A stretch of DNA of 64,000 bases, from assembly GCA_965248435.1 (NCBI GenBank), contig OZ252100.1, positions 2,176,001 through 2,240,000 of the forward strand. Reading direction: 5' to 3'. Below, in pieces: positions 16,096-48,134 of the stretch; within the stretch, counting starts at the first letter, position 1; each line of letters begins with the position of its first letter. Position numbers and translations under genes: made by a program. Under the pieces are notes generated by a model that ran no database searches, was not told where the DNA came from, and saw nothing but the letters and a program-made list of their open reading frames with translations. Source of the stretch: Candidatus Latescibacterota bacterium (GTDB lineage: Bacteria; Latescibacterota; UBA2968; GCA-2709665).

Positions 16096-17418
16096 GGTTC
16101 ATCACCGATTTCCGGGGAAGGCGTGGCGGATTCTAAGAAAGAAATAATTATCATCCCTGAAGCCATATGCCATCCGCTTGATGACCTTGATTTTGTTGTT
16201 AATTCCCTCAATCAGGCTTGTCCCGATGGGATAGTCACAGTGAGCTAGGATTCCTGGCATATACGTCTTCAGATTGCGTGCGAATTTCTTGAGTGGCTCG
16301 ATCTTGCTGTAGATGGCGCGTCGATACCACTGATTCCAGAATCTGTTGGCCGCAGCTCTGGATCGATAAGACCAGAGATGATTGAGATCCTCTTTGAGGA
16401 GGTATACCGTGTAGAGGCGTTTGTTTGCAGAAAGCAATTCTCTTAGCGACACTCTGTCTTCTTTGCTCGTGACATTTGCTTTGCTGCGCAGGAGCAACCA
16501 CCGTTGGTTCTGAGTCACTTTGCGATCGGGTCGGCCACCGCGCACCCGACCCAGTTCGTCGATGCGTACTCGCTCGACGACGTCGCGGTTGTACTTGGCT
16601 TTAACGTGATACAGGTCATAGATGATGTCCACATCCGGACAATGGGATCGCACCTCCTCTTCGTAGGCACCGTTCATGTCCATCGCCACGGCCTCAAGTT
16701 GCTTGCAGCCTTCTTCTCCAAGGAGGTGGAAAAACGGGCGGATGTCCTCTCGACTTCGGCCGCGACCCACCCATAGGACACGCTTGGTCTCCATGTCAAC
16801 AATCACTGTGGCGTAGCGATGGCCCTTTTGGATCGCAAATTCGTCCATGCCGATCACCGTGACCCTGGCAAAATCCGGCGGTTCCAGCTCTTGCTGGAGA
16901 TGGGTCTTGTGAATGCGCTTCACGGTATTCCAGCTCATCCCATAGGTGCTGTGCCACGTGCTGGATGGGCAGGACTTCGCACAATCGAACAACACTTTCA
17001 GCCAGGCGTTGAGTGACCCGTGAATACCGATCCAGCCAGTCAATCTGCTCCGTCCGGCAGCCACATCGGGGACATAGGACGCGCCGGGAGTGCACGATCA
17101 GCCTGGTTCGAGACCCCCAGATCGGCAAATCCTGAGCAAATCGCACTGCCCAATCATGAACCCGGTACGCCTTCTTCCCGCAACCACCACACCGAGGAAG
17201 GCGGCCTGTCTTGGGACGTAACTCGACTCCAACAACGTCTGCTTCCTGACGTTGAATGCCAACTACCACAAACCCTTGCCACCTACCCAGTAAGGATATA
17301 CTTTGCACCTGAGACAACGCGCTCTCCTTTCTACCTTCAGGTTTATAGAGGATACTCTGAAGATAGGTCGGATGCCGTTGTCTCGTCTATTTTCTACCCC
17401 AACATTTGACGAAGAACC
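16096..17418 (-). mobile_element. ISL3 family insertion sequence, 1323 bp
   Basis: Imperfect terminal IRs GGTTCATCACCGATTTCCGGGG / GGTTCTTCGTCAAATGTTGGGG; AT-rich flanks TTTAGCAA and TTTACAAA; lower GC. Confidence 0.92.
16102..17317 (-). pseudogene. ISL3 transposase, frameshifted
   Basis: N-terminal zinc finger (CGGC...CPRC) in one frame; DDE part (IGMDEFA, VAMDM, YDLYH, IEGINNKIKVIKRMAYGFR) in another; one extra base near 16945. Confidence 0.85.
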
Positions 17419-21048: not shown

Positions 21049-21140
21049 TTCACTCCTTTTTCCGGCCTGAATCGATTTCGAAAGGATCTATGATACGTAT
21101 TATTGAGAGTGCTGGCAAAGTCATTCACCTTTCCTAAAGG

Positions 21141-21230
21141 CAGACCGCGGGACGACGGACGGCAGACCGCCGGATAGAATGCACTTGATTTTCAAGGTTT
21201 AAGCGGTCTGTGGTCAGCCGTCTGCGGTCA
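21141..21230. repeat. Inverted heptamer arrays (CAGACCG/CGGTCTG family) around a short spacer
   Basis: GCAGACCGC...GGCAGACCGC spacer GCGGTCTG...TGCGGTC; related at 43766-43860, 48277-48364, 54963-55033. Confidence 0.7.
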
Positions 21231-40793: not shown

Positions 40794-42731
40794 CTACGAT
40801 GCCGACTTCTTATCAATCTCGCCCCGCATCCTCGCAACAACCTCCTCAAGTCCTGTTTTACCCAGGTCACCCTCACCGTGGCGACGAAGCGATACCGTGC
40901 CCTCTTCCTCTTCCTGTTTGCCGACGATCAACATGTAAGGAATCTTCTGAATTTCGGCCGCTCGTATTTTGTGACCCAGCTTGCCGTCCTGGTCGTCTCT
41001 CTCAACGCGGAACCCTTCTCTTTTGAGACGTTCCGCAACCTTTTCGCCATAACCGGCAACGGCATCGGAAATCGGCAACACAATCGCCTGGACGGGCGCG
41101 ATCCACAACGGAAAATTGCCCGCGTAGTGCTCGATCAACACGCCGAAGAACCGCTCCATCGACCCCAACAGCGTCCGATGGACCATGTAGGGCCGATGAC
41201 GGTGGCCATCCTGGCCCACGAAGTTCAGATCGAACCGCTCTGGGAGATTGAAGTCGAACTGAATCGTGCTGCACTGCCATTCCCTGTCCAGCGTGTCATT
41301 GATCATCACGTCGATTTTCGGTCCGTAGAAGGCACCTGCACCTTCGTCAATCCGGTATGGCACACCGTGGGCATCCACGGTTCGCCGAAGGGCGTCCGTC
41401 GCCCGATCCCAGTCTTCGAGATCACCCACGTACTTCTCGGGGCGCGTTGAGATATGCAAACCGAAGTCCTCGAAACCGAAGGAGCCCAGGATGTTCAGCG
41501 TGAAGTCGATGACCCGGCCGATTTCGTCCTCCACCTGGTCCGGCCGACAAAAGATGTGGGCGTCGTCCTGAGTAAACCCGCGAACGCGCATCAAACCGTG
41601 CAACACGCCTGCACGCTCGTAGCGGTAAACGGTACCCAGTTCGGCCCAGCGAAAGGGGAGCTCACGATAGCTCCTCAGGCGGCTTTTGTAGATCATACTG
41701 TGGAAGGGACAGTTCATCGGCTTGGCGAAATACTCTTGCCCGTCGATGTCCATCGGGGCGTACATGCTCTCCCGAAAGTAGTCGAGGTGTCCGCTCTTCT
41801 CCCAGAGCCTAGACCGACCCACGTGTGGGGATCCGACCAGCTCGTAGCCCCCGTCATAATGTTCCTGGCGCCAGAAGGTTTCGATCTCGTTCCGGATGCG
41901 GGCACCCTTAGGATGCCAGAGTACCAGACCCGGACCCACGAGGTCATTCACTGAGAACAGATCCAGCTCCGAGCCCAGTATGCGATGGTCGCGCCGCTTC
42001 GCCTCTTCCAGCCGGTCCAGGTACGCCTTCAGATCCTTCCCGTCCGGAAAAGAGATGCCATATATCCGCTGGAGCATCTTGTTCGATTCGTCGCCACGCC
42101 AATAGGCCCCCGAAGAACCCAGGAGCTTAACTTCCTTGATCTTTCCCGTGCTCGGAACGTGTGGGCCCCGACACAGATCGCACCACTTGTCCTCATTTCT
42201 GTAGATGCTGATCGTCTGATCAGGCTCGATTTCCGAAAGAATCTCCAACTTATACGCTTCGTCCAGGTCTTCGAAGATCTTCAGGGCTTCTTCCCTGGAC
42301 ACTTCCTGCCTTTCGAAGCGCTGATCTTCGGAGATGATCTCATGCATCCGGTCTTCGATCTTCTCGAGTTCGTCGGGTGTGAACGGCTGCTCCCGATCGA
42401 AATCGTAGTAGAATCCGTTCTCTATCGGAGGACCGATGGTGACCTTCACATCCGGAAACAGATCCTGCACCGCCTGCGCCAAAATGTGGGCCGTGGAGTG
42501 CCAGTAGACCTCTTTGCCCTCAGGCGCTGCAAAGGTCAGGATCTCAACCAGTGCATCGCTCTCGAGCGAAGCGCTCAGGTCAACCGGCATTCCCTCCACC
42601 TTCCCAGCCAGCGCTGCACGTGACAAGCCGGGGCCGATCGCGTCAGCCACCTCTTTAATCGAGGTCTGCGCAGGGAAGGTCTTCTGCGACCGGTCGGGTA
42701 AAGTAACCGTGATGTCCCCGTTGGCGACCAA
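40794..42731 (-). CDS. thrS: Threonine--tRNA ligase
   Basis: HSTAH, DLCRGPHV, KPMNCP, RVRGFTQDDAH, FYGPKID. Confidence 0.98.
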   Translation of the reverse strand: MVANGDITVTLPDRSQKTFPAQTSIKEVADAIGPGLSRAALAGKVEGMPVDLSASLESDALVEILTFAAPEGKEVYWHSTAHILAQAVQDLFPDVKVTIGPPIENGFYYDFDREQPFTPDELEKIEDRMHEIISEDQRFERQEVSREEALKIFEDLDEAYKLEILSEIEPDQTISIYRNEDKWCDLCRGPHVPSTGKIKEVKLLGSSGAYWRGDESNKMLQRIYGISFPDGKDLKAYLDRLEEAKRRDHRILGSELDLFSVNDLVGPGLVLWHPKGARIRNEIETFWRQEHYDGGYELVGSPHVGRSRLWEKSGHLDYFRESMYAPMDIDGQEYFAKPMNCPFHSMIYKSRLRSYRELPFRWAELGTVYRYERAGVLHGLMRVRGFTQDDAHIFCRPDQVEDEIGRVIDFTLNILGSFGFEDFGLHISTRPEKYVGDLEDWDRATDALRRTVDAHGVPYRIDEGAGAFYGPKIDVMINDTLDREWQCSTIQFDFNLPERFDLNFVGQDGHRHRPYMVHRTLLGSMERFFGVLIEHYAGNFPLWIAPVQAIVLPISDAVAGYGEKVAERLKREGFRVERDDQDGKLGHKIRAAEIQKIPYMLIVGKQEEEEGTVSLRRHGEGDLGKTGLEEVVARMRGEIDKKSAS

Positions 42732-42888
42732 GGTTCTCCCTATTCTCAGTTCTCTGCCACCAATTTCTTACAAACAAAAAGACGCGCCACATGCGTCTTT
42801 GCGCGCCCGGAAAATTCAAAATGTCAGACCATTTATGCGCTCGGCACTCCTCAAGCGAGGACAATGAGATTAATAAGAAAGTTAAGAA

Positions 42889-42917
42889 AATCTATCTCAT
42901 CCACAAGTTCTTGTCAA
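42889..42917 (-). promoter_or_regulatory. sigma70-type promoter for thrS
   Basis: TTGACA-17 bp-TAGATT. Confidence 0.75.
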
Positions 42918-42943: not shown

Positions 42944-43750
42944 TCAGCCCTCCAGCACGTAGAAGGTCTCTCCGGGATAAGCCATCTTCCGAACCCCTAC
43001 TCGGAGCTCGGCCAGGATCCCCTTCATCACGGACTCATAGTAGGATTCCATACCTTTCTCCCGCCCCCCGAGGCTTTGTGCAGGGAAGGACACGACGACG
43101 ATTTCAGATTCCAGCCGTTTGAGCAAGTCAAGTCCGCTCCCCTTCTTCTGCTGCTCGAGAATCGGGATCGTCTTGAGGAGCAGAACCATATCGGATCCCG
43201 GGTCGGGGCATCCTGTCAGAATATCTCCGCACTTCACCCTGGCAGGCTGGCCCATTCGCCCAAAAAAACGATCGATCAGGGAGGTCAGTCTTTCGTCTAC
43301 GTCAACCGCGATGTACTCCGTCGACCGCTTCAGGGCCATCCAGGGCAGTGCAAACGGGTTTAAACCACAGGCCAGGTCGAGAAGCGTAGCGGGGATTCCG
43401 ACCATTCGAAAGAGTGCAGGATAAAAATCGGCAAGAATGGGCAGGCGTTCTGCAGTGGACGCGTGGCATTTGAGGATTTCAGAGCAGGTCTGCTCGAGGT
43501 GTGATTCGGACACATCACCCTCAAGACCCTCGACGAGCTCTGCAGCCCGGGTAAGATCGGCCTGATCCAGATAAGCCCCATAGACCTGGTGAAGCTTCCG
43601 CTTTGCGGCCTTCGTGGCGGCCTTCAGCGAGGGATGCCGCGACTGTGCCCACTCGGCCACGCGATAAAGCGCGTCTTCGCACAGGTACTGATACTTCTTC
43701 GTCTGCTTTAGGTGATCTACGATTTCTTTGCGGAGGTCGCTCGCCGTCAT
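42944..43750 (-). CDS. 16S rRNA (guanine(1405)-N7)-methyltransferase, ArmA/Rmt/Sgm/FmrO family
   Basis: KRKLHQVYGAY, HASTAERLP, DLACGLNPF, LLLKTIPILEQQ, VVSFPAQSLGGREKGM. Confidence 0.9.
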   Translation of the reverse strand: MTASDLRKEIVDHLKQTKKYQYLCEDALYRVAEWAQSRHPSLKAATKAAKRKLHQVYGAYLDQADLTRAAELVEGLEGDVSESHLEQTCSEILKCHASTAERLPILADFYPALFRMVGIPATLLDLACGLNPFALPWMALKRSTEYIAVDVDERLTSLIDRFFGRMGQPARVKCGDILTGCPDPGSDMVLLLKTIPILEQQKKGSGLDLLKRLESEIVVVSFPAQSLGGREKGMESYYESVMKGILAELRVGVRKMAYPGETFYVLEG

Positions 43751-43765
43751 GAGAAATACGTCCTT

Positions 43766-43860
43766 CGCGACAACGGACCGCGGACTGCAGACCGCTAGAG
43801 TCTAAAGGCGATTTCATCTCGCGGTCTGCCGTCTGTCGTCCGCCGTCCGCCGTCCGCCCT
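43766..43860. repeat. Inverted heptamer arrays around a short spacer
   Basis: CGGACCGCGGACTGCAGACCGC spacer GCGGTCTGCCGTCTGTCGTCCGCCGTCCGCCGTCCG. Confidence 0.7.
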
Positions 43861-44930
43861 TAGCGAAGCCGCTCCATCATTTTGGCGTAGAATCTCAGAT
43901 TGTGCAGCGTCGCGAGCCGTTTGCCCAGACTTTCCTTCACCTTAAACAGATGGTGGAGATAGCCGCGGGTAAACTGGCTACAGCAGGGACAGTCGCACCG
44001 TTCATCGACAGGTAGCCCATCCCTGGCAAACCTTTCGTCACCGATGTAAAGATACCGCCAGAAGTCTTCACTCTGGGATCCGAAGCCGTCCCAGTCGATC
44101 TCTAATGTATAGAGTCGACCCTGGCGGGCGTCGCGTGTCGGCATGACACAATCAAAGAGGTCATATCCGAAGCGATGGGCCTTCATCAGGTTGTCCGGAT
44201 TTCCGATTCCCAGGCCGTGTGTGGGATGACCTTCTGGAATCTGCTCGGCGACGAAGCCGACAATATCCAGTAGGTGTCCATCCTTGTCGATCGGCCAGCC
44301 CCCGAATCCGTAGCCGTCAAACCCGATCTCGAAAAGCGACTCCGCGCAGCGCAAGCGCAGAGCCCGGTCTTTACCGCCGTGGACAACCCCAAAAAGCAGC
44401 GGGCGCTGGGTGCCGCCGGCCCCCGAGTCCAGGAGCCGGTTGAACTCCGCCCTGCACCGGCGGGACCAAGCGACGGTCCGCTCAACACTCTCGGTCTGCG
44501 CACGCGTATCCTCGTCGGGATGGGTGCAATGGTCGAGGCAGAACATGATGTCCGCACCCAACTGAAACTGTTTCTGAATACACGTTTCCGGAGTCAGGCG
44601 ACGCTTCTTTCCACCATCCGGCTTGTAGACAAAGCCTTCTGAGGAGACCCGTCCCTTCCTGATGAGTGAATGCATCTGAAATCCACCCGAGTCCGAAGCA
44701 ATCGGTCCGCCCCATCCCGTAAAGGAATGGATGCCTCCCAGGCTCTCGATCAAGGAGATTCCGGGCCGGTTCCAAAGATGCAGCGTGTTGACCATGAACC
44801 CCTCAATCCCAACCTCCTTCAAATCGGCCGGTCCTAGACCACGTACGACGCCCATCGTCCCGTCAGGCAGGAAGGCCGGCAATCGAAGCGACCCGTGTCC
44901 AGACTGCACCTGCTTCAAACGCTCGTCCAT
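43860..44930 (-). CDS. tgt: tRNA-guanine transglycosylase family protein, divergent substrate pocket
   Basis: DSGGFQ, LDHC, FDCVMPTRDAR, Zn site CDCPCC...HNL; atypical PDGT, VVHGG, GFGGWP, HGLG. Confidence 0.88.
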   Translation of the reverse strand: MDERLKQVQSGHGSLRLPAFLPDGTMGVVRGLGPADLKEVGIEGFMVNTLHLWNRPGISLIESLGGIHSFTGWGGPIASDSGGFQMHSLIRKGRVSSEGFVYKPDGGKKRRLTPETCIQKQFQLGADIMFCLDHCTHPDEDTRAQTESVERTVAWSRRCRAEFNRLLDSGAGGTQRPLLFGVVHGGKDRALRLRCAESLFEIGFDGYGFGGWPIDKDGHLLDIVGFVAEQIPEGHPTHGLGIGNPDNLMKAHRFGYDLFDCVMPTRDARQGRLYTLEIDWDGFGSQSEDFWRYLYIGDERFARDGLPVDERCDCPCCSQFTRGYLHHLFKVKESLGKRLATLHNLRFYAKMMERLR

Positions 44931-44936
44931 GCGCCC

Positions 44937-45590
44937 TCAGGGCAAATGCAGCATTTTGTGGATTCGACACGAAAGCCGCCAGCTCGGATGTCGCGTCAGA
45001 ATCTCGAGAGTTTTATGGATATACTCTGGTCTGTTCGACTCCGGCTGAAGGTAGATGAACTCCGCGCGATCTTCTTCGACGATGTCCTCCCGGAACGCCT
45101 TGCCCACGACATATTTCAACTCGGTGATCACTTTCAGTCCCGGCGCGAGATTCCGACGCTTGGGGGACACCGTCCAGTGATCGATCAAGTCGTAGAGTTC
45201 GCCATCCGGCTCCAGAGCACCGTTCGTCTCGATGTGAATCATGTAGCCAGACCCCTTCAGTGTGTGACAGAGCGGCGTAATGTTCTGGCCCAGCGGTTCC
45301 CCGCCCGTGAGGCAGATCCATCCCGCGCGATGTCTCCTGACTTCCCGAAGGATCTCTTCAAGCCCCATGTCGGTGTAGGAATCAAACTCAGTGTCACAAA
45401 ACGCGCACCGAAGATTGCACCTCGCGAGTCTGACAAACGTCGTCGGCTGTCCGACACGCAGGCCCTCCCCTTCGATCGAGTAGAAGATCTCGTTGATCTG
45501 CAGGGTGTGCCCGTCCTCGCGCCATACAGGCATGCGCTCCTGCGGTGCGGATGGGTTTTCGAGCGCGTCGTTCTCGAACTCTTGACTCAC
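44937..45590 (-). CDS. queE: 7-carboxy-7-deazaguanine synthase (radical SAM)
   Basis: EIFYSIEGEG, FVRLARCNLRCAFCDT, TGGEP, IETNG, VSPK, YLQPE. Confidence 0.92.
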   Translation of the reverse strand: MSQEFENDALENPSAPQERMPVWREDGHTLQINEIFYSIEGEGLRVGQPTTFVRLARCNLRCAFCDTEFDSYTDMGLEEILREVRRHRAGWICLTGGEPLGQNITPLCHTLKGSGYMIHIETNGALEPDGELYDLIDHWTVSPKRRNLAPGLKVITELKYVVGKAFREDIVEEDRAEFIYLQPESNRPEYIHKTLEILTRHPSWRLSCRIHKMLHLP

Positions 45591-45769
45591 ACGAGCGTCC
45601 TTTTTTCTGAACCATCATTTCGTCGATCCTGACAGAATATAGTTTTTGTCCTGAGGATGCGCAATCTGCCTCCAATCGACTTTAAAATCGGAAAACGGCT
45701 TGACAAATCAACCCGGACGATGGACATTTCTGACACGATCCCACCTTCTGACAGACGCTGGACTTCCCG

Positions 45770-46561
45770 ATGCACACCTTCGCTGCCCTAACGATACCTC
45801 GAGACAAGGTAGGGATTCACTGGTTCGGACAAAGTTCCTTCGCACTGAAGGATACCACGGGGACCCTCGTCCAGATCGACCCCTATTTTCCGAGAGAGCG
45901 TCCCTCAGACCGTTTCATCCATCCCGTTTCGCCGCTCGATGAATCCAGCTTGAAGACTCAATTCGTGCTCCTCACGCACGACCACTCGGATCACACCTGC
46001 GTCGAATCCCTCCAGCGCCTCCACGAAGCCTTTCCCGAAACCGTTTTTTTTAGTCCTTCGGAAAGCGTTGCTCGACTCGCGGACTCCGGAATCCCCCAAA
46101 ATCTTCTCAAACAGGTGGCCTCGGGAGACGAAATTCCGATGGGTTCGATGAAAGCCACGGCGGTCTGGGCGAAACCGGCAGCCGGCCACGCGGAAGCAGG
46201 CATCGATCCGCCTGACGTGCATCACCTCGGCTACGTCGTTGAAGCAGGAAACGTGCGTGTCTATGTCTCGGGAGATCCCATCAACACCTTCGCAGAGCGC
46301 GATGACCTCCTGCGTCCCATCGCGAGTCTTTGCCCTCAAATCGGACTCTTAACCACGCATCCTACCGAGGGCGAGTTTCCCTTCTTCGCCGGGTCAGTCG
46401 AAACGGCGCTGGAACTCGGCCTCGAGGCAGCCATTCCCGCCCATTACGATTGCTTTGTCGCGAGGAACTACGACGCCGAGGCCTGGGCGGCGATCTTCCC
46501 TGAGTCCGGCCCCAAGCCGATCGTCATTCCCTACAACAGCGCGATCGTCTACCCCGACTGA
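45770..46561 (+). CDS. Metallo-beta-lactamase fold hydrolase (UlaG-like)
   Basis: WFGQSSF, IDPY, THDHSDH, YVSGD, IPAHYD. Confidence 0.88.
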   Translation: MHTFAALTIPRDKVGIHWFGQSSFALKDTTGTLVQIDPYFPRERPSDRFIHPVSPLDESSLKTQFVLLTHDHSDHTCVESLQRLHEAFPETVFFSPSESVARLADSGIPQNLLKQVASGDEIPMGSMKATAVWAKPAAGHAEAGIDPPDVHHLGYVVEAGNVRVYVSGDPINTFAERDDLLRPIASLCPQIGLLTTHPTEGEFPFFAGSVETALELGLEAAIPAHYDCFVARNYDAEAWAAIFPESGPKPIVIPYNSAIVYPD

Positions 46562-46590: not shown

Positions 46591-47313
46591 TCACACATAG
46601 TCCTCGGCGTTGTCTTCCGGATCGTATCCAAGTTCCTCACGTGCATTCTGGATGTCCCAGTAGGCGCGCCTATTGTTGGAGATCCCGTAATAGATCCCGA
46701 ACGTCACGGGCTCTGCTTCGATGCTGCGTCGGATAAGCTGAACGGCGTCCCGGTGGCTCAGCCAGGTCGAAAGAATCCGGTCGTCTCCCCTGTTGCGAAC
46801 GGAGGCTTCGGGTTGAAAGGTGCCGATTCGTAAACAGATCACCGAAAGTCCGAATCGATCGACGTAGTGCCGGCCGAGATGCTCTCCAAAGGCCTTACTG
46901 ACGCCGTAGAGACTGTCCGGGCGGCAGGGCATGTCCGGACGGGTATAGACGCCCTCCTGCTCGTAGAATCCGGTCACGTGGTTGGTGCTGGCAAACACAA
47001 TTCGCTTGACGCCCGATCGGCGGGCCGCTTCGAACACGGTGTAGGTGCCTCGAATGTTGGCTTCGAGGACCGCATCCCAGGGCGCGTCCAGATTCGGGTT
47101 TCCCGCCAGGTGAACAATCGCCTCGATCCCATCGACGACCTCCACCATGTGATCCAGTTGGGTGACGTCTCCAACAAAAATTTCTTCACCCGCAGTCGCG
47201 GATAGTGGCGCGCGGTCGTGGAGGCGCAACCGATACCGGTCCTTAAGGCCCTCACGTAGGACTCGACCGACGCCTCCGGCCGCCCCGGTGACAAGAAGGT
47301 TTTTGCGGTCCAT
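46591..47313 (-). CDS. NAD-dependent epimerase/dehydratase (uronate dehydrogenase-like)
   Basis: TGAAGGVG, ASTNHVTG, YGVSK, LRIG, TWLSHRD, YGISNN. Confidence 0.88.
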   Translation of the reverse strand: MDRKNLLVTGAAGGVGRVLREGLKDRYRLRLHDRAPLSATAGEEIFVGDVTQLDHMVEVVDGIEAIVHLAGNPNLDAPWDAVLEANIRGTYTVFEAARRSGVKRIVFASTNHVTGFYEQEGVYTRPDMPCRPDSLYGVSKAFGEHLGRHYVDRFGLSVICLRIGTFQPEASVRNRGDDRILSTWLSHRDAVQLIRRSIEAEPVTFGIYYGISNNRRAYWDIQNAREELGYDPEDNAEDYV

Positions 47314-47408: not shown

Positions 47409-48134
47409 ATGAAAGTCCTCATCCTGGCCGCCGGATACGCCACCCGTCTCTACCCGATAACCAGAAACTTCCCGAAGGCGCTCCTGGAAGTCGGGGGAAA
47501 GACCGTCCTCGATCACCTCTTTCAGAGCCTCGACGCCCTGGAAGTAGACACGGTCCACCTCGTAACAAACAGCCTCTTCGCGGATCGGTTCAAGGCCTGG
47601 AGAACTTCATCGAAGCGCGACCGGCTGGACATCATCGACGATGGCACAGCGTCGAGCGAAACGCGTTTGGAGGCCGTTGGGGATATGAGGCTCGCCGTCA
47701 CGTCCCGTGATATCAGAGACGACCTCCTCGTTTGTGCTGCGGACAACATCTTTCGGTTCCCATTTTCAGGACTCAGGGATGCCTTCCGCACTCATCCGCT
47801 TGCCCACGTCTGCGCCTACCAGGAGCAAAGCTTGGAAAAGCGCCAGGAAAAAGGCAATGTCGTTCTGGATGAAGACAATCGGATCCTCGAAATGCACGAA
47901 AAACCCCGAAATCCGAAATCACTGTGGGCAACGGCCCCCCTTTACGTGTATCCAGCCTCAACCCTTCCTCGAATCGAGGAGTACTTGCACATCGGCGAGA
48001 GTCCTGACGCGCCGGGCCACTTTTTGGAATGGCTTTGTAGTGTTGAGCCGGTCTATGCCTACCCCATTCAAGGCTCGGTCCTGGACATCGGCAGCCCGGA
48101 GTCTCTCGCGGAGGCGAGAAAAAAGCTTAGGTGA
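47409..48134 (+). CDS. Sugar-phosphate nucleotidyltransferase family protein
   Basis: LAAGYATRLYPITRNFPKALL, EKP, DIGS. Confidence 0.9.
   Translation: MKVLILAAGYATRLYPITRNFPKALLEVGGKTVLDHLFQSLDALEVDTVHLVTNSLFADRFKAWRTSSKRDRLDIIDDGTASSETRLEAVGDMRLAVTSRDIRDDLLVCAADNIFRFPFSGLRDAFRTHPLAHVCAYQEQSLEKRQEKGNVVLDEDNRILEMHEKPRNPKSLWATAPLYVYPASTLPRIEEYLHIGESPDAPGHFLEWLCSVEPVYAYPIQGSVLDIGSPESLAEARKKLR

Follow-up and report, generated by a model that had tools for sequence, protein, structure and literature searches.

A gene encoding a tRNA-guanine transglycosylase (Tgt) with a remodelled base pocket and a gene encoding a methyltransferase of the FmrO/Rmt family are neighbours on the chromosome of Candidatus Latescibacterota bacterium (assembly GCA_965248435.1, contig OZ252100.1), and this link is strongly conserved across many phyla and is not a matter of local chance. 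The DNA analyzed, referred to throughout as the window, is the 64,000-nucleotide (nt) stretch at positions 2,176,001 to 2,240,000 of the forward strand of that contig, and all coordinates given are positions in the window. The reading towards which we lean, with modest confidence, is that the pair would belong to a chromosomal operon with two targets in the decoding centre, G34 of transfer RNA (tRNA) and G1405 of 16S ribosomal RNA (rRNA), and not to a single guanine-N7 pathway. An earlier note on this DNA had placed queE, tgt and the methyltransferase gene together in such a pathway. The three co-oriented genes that it described are real, all on the minus strand, and the spacing of 6 nt that it gave between the queE stop and the tgt start is borne out.

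44937-45590, minus strand: QueE-like radical-SAM (S-adenosylmethionine) 7-carboxy-7-deazaguanine synthase, 217 amino acids (aa), first gene of the unit
43860-44930, minus strand: Tgt of the 'GGWP' subfamily, 356 aa
43751-43859, minus strand: spacer of 109 nt, an imperfect palindrome resembling repetitive extragenic palindromic (REP) elements
42944-43750, minus strand: FmrO/Rmt-family SAM-dependent methyltransferase, 268 aa, probable 16S rRNA 7-methylguanosine-1405 (m7G1405) enzyme

Conservation of the tgt-methyltransferase link

Genomes were scanned with the clade alignment, one genome per species; at least 541 species matched and the best 80 loci were analyzed. As the scan pattern included GGW, a restriction of the methyltransferase link to GGWP Tgts cannot be read from these 80 loci. 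Gene counts at the loci come from tblastn and from a profile search of six-frame open reading frames (ORFs), and the Pfam scans of neighbouring ORFs excluded 43 representatives longer than 560 aa. Among the best 80 are loci labelled Latescibacterota, Chloroflexota, Ignavibacteria, Armatimonadota, Hydrogenedentota and Planctomycetota, together with others labelled Acidobacteriota, Nitrospirota, Gemmatimonadota, Bacillota, Actinomycetota and further groups. One locus, L029, is that of a cultured carrier, Dictyobacter aurantiacus (NZ_BIFQ01000001.1), which counts among the complete carriers with OZ244937.1, OZ252228.1, OZ242318.1 and CP070816.1.

In 74 of the 80 loci tblastn finds an FmrO-like gene, as does the profile search, and the gene lies directly downstream of tgt on the same strand in 70. 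These 70 comprise 67 adjacent pairs, a fusion (L050), a gene in pieces (L027) and the first of two copies (L059). One gene intervenes between tgt and the FmrO-like gene in L061 and L066, and the FmrO-like gene is upstream of tgt in L025 and L003. Neither tblastn nor the profile search found an FmrO-like gene within reach in the other six (L026, L055, L057, L070, L071, L079). With start codons chosen heuristically, 46 of the 67 adjacent pairs overlap, mostly by 4 or 8 nt, and the median spacing is -4 nt. The link thus extends well beyond this genome, and non-conservation, an objection that the earlier note had allowed for, fails. Our partial coverage of the literature found no paper on a tgt-rmt link outside plasmids, on the GGWP subfamily or on the fusion.

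A Tgt subfamily with an altered base pocket

The Tgt domain matches PF01702 with 317.1 bits (cut-off 26.3) and passes TIGR00430 marginally (312.1 versus a cut-off of 306.75), and its homology to the Zymomonas mobilis Tgt structures is full length (E ~1e-71). The motifs DSGGFQ (residue 80), LDHC (132), FDCV (259) and PTRDAR (264) are present, as are Cys312, Cys314, Cys317 and His343. Catalytic Asp80 and Asp260, together with Asp133 and the zinc site, are preserved, much as the earlier note had read these aspartates, PTRDAR and the zinc site from the sequence. In Z. mobilis numbering, the window enzyme keeps Asp102, Asp156, Asp280, Gly229-Gly230, Cys158, PTRxxR and the zinc site. Where the Z. 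mobilis enzyme has Leu231-Ala232-Val233-Gly234-Glu235, however, the window Tgt has Trp-Pro-Ile-Asp-Lys, with Trp212-Pro213 in its own numbering and with the loss of Glu235; Tyr258-Leu259-Met260 is replaced by His-Gly-Leu, and Gln203 by His. At these pocket positions the Escherichia coli Tgt reads IIQGS, GGLAVGE and RYLMG. The alignment with the two enzymes upholds the earlier view that the pocket is non-canonical, the changes being on the side turned toward position 7 of the base. Further differences from bacterial Tgts are an insertion of ~10 residues before the zinc subdomain and the linkage of the window gene to an rmt gene instead of queA or yajC.

Of 121 sequences, only three, the window Tgt and its two closest relatives, have His in place of Gln203. 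An alignment of 36 homologues shows no variation at Trp212 or Pro213, and WP is present in 186 of the 195 homologues found by word-based searches. Neither clade alignment shows any variation at D80, D133, G210, G211, D260, C312, C317 or H343; at C314 one shows none and the other very little. At the Val233 position the GGWP subfamily has Ile or Val, and Cys158 is kept. When the 95 Tgt representatives (50% clustering) nearest the fused query were sorted, 23 were GGWP, 7 were GGxP, 49 were canonical, defined as GG[LVM][AS]VGE with RY[LF]MG, and 16 were of other types. As judged from these alignments, GGWP Tgts are a distinct and large subfamily and the pocket change is not a quirk of the window.

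Archaeal Tgt (ArcTGT) and the DpdA enzymes share the common TGT fold and 7-deazaguanine chemistry, but membership of either family is rejected, with scores of 68.4 against the ArcTGT model TIGR00432 (cut-off 350) and 20.2 against the DpdA model NF041059 (cut-off 200). In one 710-aa representative, P0211, the GGWP Tgt domain is C-terminal (residues 340-694) and the N-terminal half may be another fused architecture.

In the Z. mobilis Tgt, the Leu231/Ala232 peptide flips between two ligand states (PMC3660597). With 7-aminomethyl-7-deazaguanine (preQ1) bound, the carbonyl faces the base and the NH bonds Glu235; when guanine is bound, it is the NH that points into the pocket, where a water molecule bridges it to N7 of G34 (PMC3660597). 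Because the residue corresponding to Ala232 is a proline without an NH, and position 235 is not conserved, this guanine/preQ1 peptide switch cannot operate in the window Tgt. Only the carbonyl could then face the 7-substituent, and preQ1 is the base that we infer to fit best.

The methyltransferase

The methyltransferase matches PF07091 (FmrO) with 171.7 bits (cut-off 27). Sgm (PDB 3LCU/3LCV) is its nearest solved structure, with alignment of residues 4-267 to 3LCU at E 1.3e-46. Sgm, a sisomicin-gentamicin resistance methylase, is encoded by a self-resistance gene of an aminoglycoside producer that is part of an antibiotic gene cluster. RmtC (8GHU) aligns over the full length (E 2.8e-32), and RmtB and RmtA-like chains also align end to end. 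The motifs KY, KLHQ, H.ST.ER, CGLNP and SFP..SLGG..KGM are conserved across the 73 methyltransferases of the module. In a study of RmtC, Lys20, Arg50, His54, Lys236, Arg241 and Met245 are given as residues for 30S binding and G1405 modification (bioRxiv 10.1101/712810); the window enzyme either keeps or conservatively substitutes RmtC Lys20, Arg50/Lys51, His54, Arg241 and Met245, and it has Gln for Lys236.

In a tree of the methyltransferases, RmtB, RmtD2, RmtG, RmtE2 and ArmA fall outside the 72 environmental sequences, and RmtC groups with Ignavibacteria-like sequences. No donor of a clinical rmt gene can be named from this tree because its sample was chosen by Tgt similarity to the window.

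Clinical plasmid rmt genes

Several rmt genes on clinical, enterobacterial plasmids have a tgt gene close upstream. A whole GGWP-type tgt, first glimpsed in the 60-nt flank of rmtD2, lies 18 nt upstream of rmtD2; the gene order on pKP13f is rsmH-tgt-rmtG; rmtE2 is overlapped on two plasmids by a tgt cut at its 5′-end; and the order tgt-metallophosphoesterase-rmtB2 puts tgt one gene upstream of rmtB2. The plasmid loci are L086 (NZ_KT935446.1), L087 (p12100-NDM), L088 (pKP13f) and, for the rmtE2 plasmids, L089 and L090. Their tgt genes are of the GGWP type, with GGFP beside rmtE2. The rmtG, rmtE2 and rmtB2 contexts were found by a plasmid search with the window Tgt, and cannot be taken as an unbiased sample. 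Most plasmid copies of rmt or armA have no tgt nearby: 1593 plasmid records have an rmt or armA match versus 69 with a tgt match (E <= 1e-40). Among the matches listed, the plasmid tgt identity exceeds 45% in 9 of 40.

A gene of this kind is reportedly also found upstream of rmtD. The occurrence of tgt beside rmtG is already in print: one paper describes, directly 5′ to rmtG, a putative tRNA ribosyltransferase (PMC3904158), and a review places rmtG in an operon with rsmH and tgt (PMC9311965).

The plasmid contexts resemble the window in gene order, in near-abutting spacing and in having a GG[WF]P tgt, and the rsmH upstream of rmtG resembles the rsmH-rsmI upstream in L004 and L005. These two loci, which are labelled Acidobacteriota, have the order rsmH-rsmI-tgt-rmt that mirrors the rsmH-tgt-rmtG of pKP13f. 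All five plasmid stretches adjoin IS91-family elements and IS26 flanks three of the five; no IS26 is listed on the pKP13f or pMY146-rmtE stretches. Whereas the plasmid copies are captured fragments that adjoin IS91-family and IS26 elements, the window module is chromosomal, stands among housekeeping genes and has queE upstream. The window pair and the rmtD2 pair are 46% identical in Tgt and 34% in the methyltransferase, and the plasmid tgt genes retain Tyr258 and Met260 (KYAMG), unlike the window Tgt. The IS91-bounded fragments fit capture from tgt-rmt operons like that of the window.

As rmtE2 sits behind a 5′-truncated tgt, methyltransferase function appears to be independent of Tgt. Since a GG[WF]P tgt also precedes clinical rmt genes, the window methyltransferase is most likely a native 16S rRNA m7G1405 enzyme.

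Tgt-FmrO fusions

The L050 pair is a single reading frame of 663 aa. A search with this fusion identified eight protein clusters that hold both PF01702 and PF07091, and the catalytic Asp and GGWP are preserved in all eight. Six of the clusters have 58-62% identity to L050 at 96-97% coverage and form one clade with it (support 0.915), which argues for a fusion that is old and maintained and not a sequencing error. P0131 and P0151, the remaining two, differ in having longer linkers and in their place in the tree, where they branch separately amid Chloroflexota Tgts that are not fused; each may have arisen as a fusion of its own or be an artefact. Fusion is rare: when 1.84 billion representatives were searched, a single one of the 150 best matches, that which represents the L050 clade, covered both domains in one stretch.

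The QueE-like protein

The product of the first gene has a radical-SAM domain (PF04055) and the QueE signature motifs EIFYSIEGEG, CxxxCxxC, TGGEP, ETNG and, at its C-terminus, WRLS..HK. It aligns over its full length with the Burkholderia multivorans QueE (4NJG, E 8.6e-19), and the E. coli QueE (6NHL) was also matched. It differs from these two in combining a canonical CxxxCxxC cluster motif with scores under the cut-off of every NCBIfam QueE subfamily; its best NCBIfam matches are QueE models, all far under their cut-offs (98.7 versus 300, for example).

By tblastn, queE orthologues with 72-75% identity are present upstream of tgt in 5 of the 80 loci (L001, L002, L007, L008 and L018), and L052 has only a weak QueE match. 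The QueE linkage is lineage-specific, confined to Latescibacterota-like loci. A GFO/IDH/MocA oxidoreductase gene is located between queE and tgt in L008 (4121-5170) and L018 (5953-6981), so that the contact between queE and tgt is loose even within this lineage.

The spacer between tgt and the methyltransferase gene

The earlier note had described the gap between tgt and the methyltransferase gene as almost entirely a heptamer repeat. The repeat is present, as a tandem array of 5 x 7 nt (43824-43858), but 'almost entirely' overstated its share of a 109-nt gap that also contains an inverted copy. The array pairs with this copy, the arms being 43769-43799 and 43817-43847, and the spacer folds as a long hairpin (-54.3 kcal/mol, z -3.8) that none of 200 shuffled sequences equalled. 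A related palindromic element is present at ~21140-21230, and the spacer can for that reason be regarded as a REP-like insertion. Both copies (43769-43858 and ~21140-21230) are intergenic and built of GNCNGAC-type heptamers. An intrinsic terminator was considered and ruled out, as the hairpin has no T-run and is absent from the terminator-scan list. In the closest relatives (L001, L002 and L018) tgt and the methyltransferase gene abut or overlap, and by the same heuristic choice of start codons only one of the 67 adjacent homologous pairs has a gap longer than 100 nt.

Gene neighbourhoods and a proposed function

Some GGWP tgt genes retain the neighbours of a classical tgt. In L069 the order is ruvB..queA-tgt-rmt, with queA directly beside tgt; L021 has tgt-rmt..yajC-secD; L044 has yebC-ruvC..rsmI-tgt-rmt-ruvA; and L052 has queE-like and queD genes upstream of tgt. 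A gene for a Vut_1 (PF02592) transporter, which we take to be YhhQ, the queuosine-precursor transporter, is present in 4 of the 80 loci, among them L058. With the equivalog-level score and the intact catalytic machinery, this classical synteny favours ordinary exchange at G34, and suggests that the GGWP Tgt may be an enzyme of the queuosine pathway.

The single guanine-position-7 pathway of the earlier note does not fare well against these data. QueE is linked in 5 of 80 loci, all Latescibacterota-like; the methyltransferase has the full Rmt architecture and, kept or conservatively replaced, five of the six RmtC residues for 30S binding and G1405 modification; the clinical RmtB2, RmtD2, RmtE2 and RmtG share the tgt-linked context; and ruvB-queA-tgt and tgt..yajC-secD point to tRNA G34.

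The arrangement that we favour would have at its core an ancient two-gene module, tgt(GGWP)-rmt, within a housekeeping RNA-modification operon. Tgt would swap G34 of tRNAs with GUN anticodons for a small 7-deazaguanine, most likely preQ1, the ring of which would be supplied by a pathway that includes the adjacent QueE. Lacking the Leu231/Ala232-Glu235 switch, the enzyme would present only a backbone carbonyl toward position 7 of the base. The Rmt-family enzyme would methylate N7 of G1405, in helix 44, in assembled 30S subunits. Through co-expression both enzymes would tune the decoding centre, as would RsmI, RsmH, RsmF and RsmE, which are often in the cluster. An rmt product itself blocks aminoglycoside binding. 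In Vibrio cholerae under sub-inhibitory tobramycin, a transposon-sequencing (Tn-seq) study has insertions depleted in tgt (-15.8x), rsmH (-8.4x), rsmI (-8.4x) and rsmF (-2.5x), with queADEF likewise needed (PMC10117853). On the evidence of this depletion, the genes that cluster with rmt are those whose loss lowers aminoglycoside fitness. What the sequences show directly is the identity of the genes, the changes in the pocket, the conserved link, the fusions and the like context of clinical rmt genes; the substrates of both enzymes and the reason for their coupling are inferred.

A number of observations weigh against this two-target proposal. The methyltransferase scores just under the cut-off of the 'Rmt family' model NF000466 (238.7 versus 250), and at the position of RmtC Lys236 it has Gln, with Q, R, K and H all found among the enzymes of the module. 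Two divergent FmrO paralogues, 27-42% identical, are present around Tgt in 9 of the 80 loci (L014, L020, L036, L039, L045, L059, L068, L080 and L003), in the order tgt-fmrO-fmrO-rsmF or fmrO-rsmI-tgt-fmrO, and the second paralogue hints at a second methylation target. Few GGWP tgt genes have classical queuosine neighbours, with queA, yajC-secD and queD each found in one of the 80 loci. Genes for rRNA methyltransferases abound (of the 80 loci, 36 have RsmI, 9 RsmF, 6 RsmE and 2 RsmH), which by association suggests equally well that the GGWP Tgt itself may have a role on rRNA. Enzymes that act on separate substrates are not usually joined in a conserved fusion, and the decoding-centre reading explains co-expression but not the fusion. 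Finally, the remodelled peptide is the one that contacts N7 of guanine via a water molecule (PMC3660597), in a lineage linked to an N7-methyltransferase, and this coincidence is left unexplained.

Alternative explanations

In one alternative, the methyltransferase and the Tgt without its switch would work successively on the same guanine. Methylation of N7 might create a neutral leaving group for a Tgt that is unable to hydrogen-bond N7, or Tgt might act on helix 44 of 16S rRNA, brought there by the 30S-docking methyltransferase. Near-obligate adjacency, overlapping stop and start codons and the fusion are what such coupling would lead one to expect, as is a neighbourhood made up mainly of helix-44 methyltransferases. 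The pocket offers a further point, as Trp-Pro replaces the peptide whose NH contacts N7 of G34 via water (PMC3660597), and Glu235 is lost. Yet the methyltransferase keeps its 30S-binding N-terminal residues, clinical rmtE2 follows a truncated tgt, and plasmid records with rmt or armA (1593) far outnumber those with a tgt match (69). The Tgt, for its part, has the canonical catalytic residues, the PTRxxR motif and the zinc site intact, and its gene adjoins queA or yajC in some loci. G1405 is, moreover, base-paired and in a C-G-U context, not in a U-G-U loop. Sequential action on a common guanine is, on these counts, distinctly improbable. The chance is slimmer still for its fullest form, a single machine in which Rmt would make m7G and the Trp-bearing, switch-less Tgt would remove it and insert a 7-deazaguanine, at tRNA G34 or G1405; if true, this would amount either to an exchange of RNA bases that methylation activates or to the first case of a 7-deazaguanine in rRNA.

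A Tgt whose tRNA substrate has changed independently of the methyltransferase would insert 7-cyano-7-deazaguanine (preQ0) or 7-carboxy-7-deazaguanine at G34, and the final modification would not be standard queuosine. The changes are indeed all in the part of the pocket that faces the 7-substituent, with Cys158 kept and Val233 as Ile or Val; QueE is adjacent with no queC or queF in the window as scanned with NCBIfam; and queA is adjacent in only one of 80 loci. That one locus, L069, nevertheless has queA directly beside a GGWP tgt, and QueA needs preQ1-tRNA. The linkage of QueE is confined to one lineage, and, extrapolating from PMC3660597, the Pro232 carbonyl should suit the ammonium-methyl group of preQ1 and not a nitrile or carboxylate. 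We regard a changed substrate as unlikely, and assign a similarly low probability to historical accident, in which unrelated tgt and rmt genes would be held together by tight overlap and co-transfer with GGWP a neutral marker of the clade. Overlapping stop and start codons do make separation costly, six of the 80 GGWP tgt loci have no methyltransferase gene within reach, and the classical linkage of tgt with yajC-secDF illustrates that unrelated genes can remain linked. The tgt-rmt link persists, however, in loci that carry the labels of more than 10 phyla and whose flanks are otherwise unrelated, the two genes have fused on up to three separate occasions, and other decoding-centre genes recur in the cluster.

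Flanking genes and signals

Around the unit the following signals and downstream neighbour were located:

45679-45706, minus strand: promoter-like site upstream of queE, TTGTCA-16-TAAAGT (consensus match only)
42889-42917, minus strand: promoter-like site between the methyltransferase gene and thrS (consensus match only)
42778-42800, minus strand: terminator-like hairpin between the methyltransferase gene and thrS (consensus match only)
40794-42731, minus strand: thrS, downstream housekeeping neighbour

The promoter-like site and the terminator-like hairpin between the methyltransferase gene and thrS suggest that the three-gene unit may end there. Housekeeping genes (rny, thrS, infC, recN, xseA and mqnC) flank the unit. 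The identity of ThrS to its counterparts in L001, L002 and L018 is 78-79%, and thrS synteny is conserved in these loci. Upstream of queE are genes for a metallo-β-lactamase (MBL)-fold hydrolase (45770-46561), an Azf-like short-chain dehydrogenase/reductase (SDR; 46591-47313) and a sugar nucleotidyltransferase (47409-48134); the hydrolase has matches in L002, L007 and L008, the SDR in L002 and L007, and the nucleotidyltransferase in L002 only.

That queA, queD, queC and queF are outside the window, as the earlier note had it, agrees with our searches: tblastn found no match to queA or queD in the 64 kb, and QueE is the sole queuosine-pathway family matched when 55 window ORFs were compared with NCBIfam, the only search made for queC and queF. 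At E <= 0.1, Rfam returned no family between 38000 and 49000, and a preQ1 riboswitch near the unit is ruled out on that result. Elsewhere in the window, an ISL3-family transposase ORF of 320 aa (16102-17064) covers only positions 86-369 of the 370 in the model, and probably either lacks part of its N-terminus or was given a wrong start.

Implications

Four families of clinical pan-aminoglycoside-resistance enzymes (RmtB2, RmtD2, RmtE2 and RmtG) share an operon arrangement that is widespread on the chromosomes of uncultivated environmental phyla. This arrangement suggests a source for the clinical rmt genes and a reason why tgt fragments travel along with them. The GGWP Tgts, as a subfamily without the textbook switch, provide a natural experiment on how guanine and preQ1 are discriminated. 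The near-obligate pairing of Tgt with Rmt also raises the question of whether queuosine and m7G1405 may be coupled, for example in aminoglycoside tolerance.

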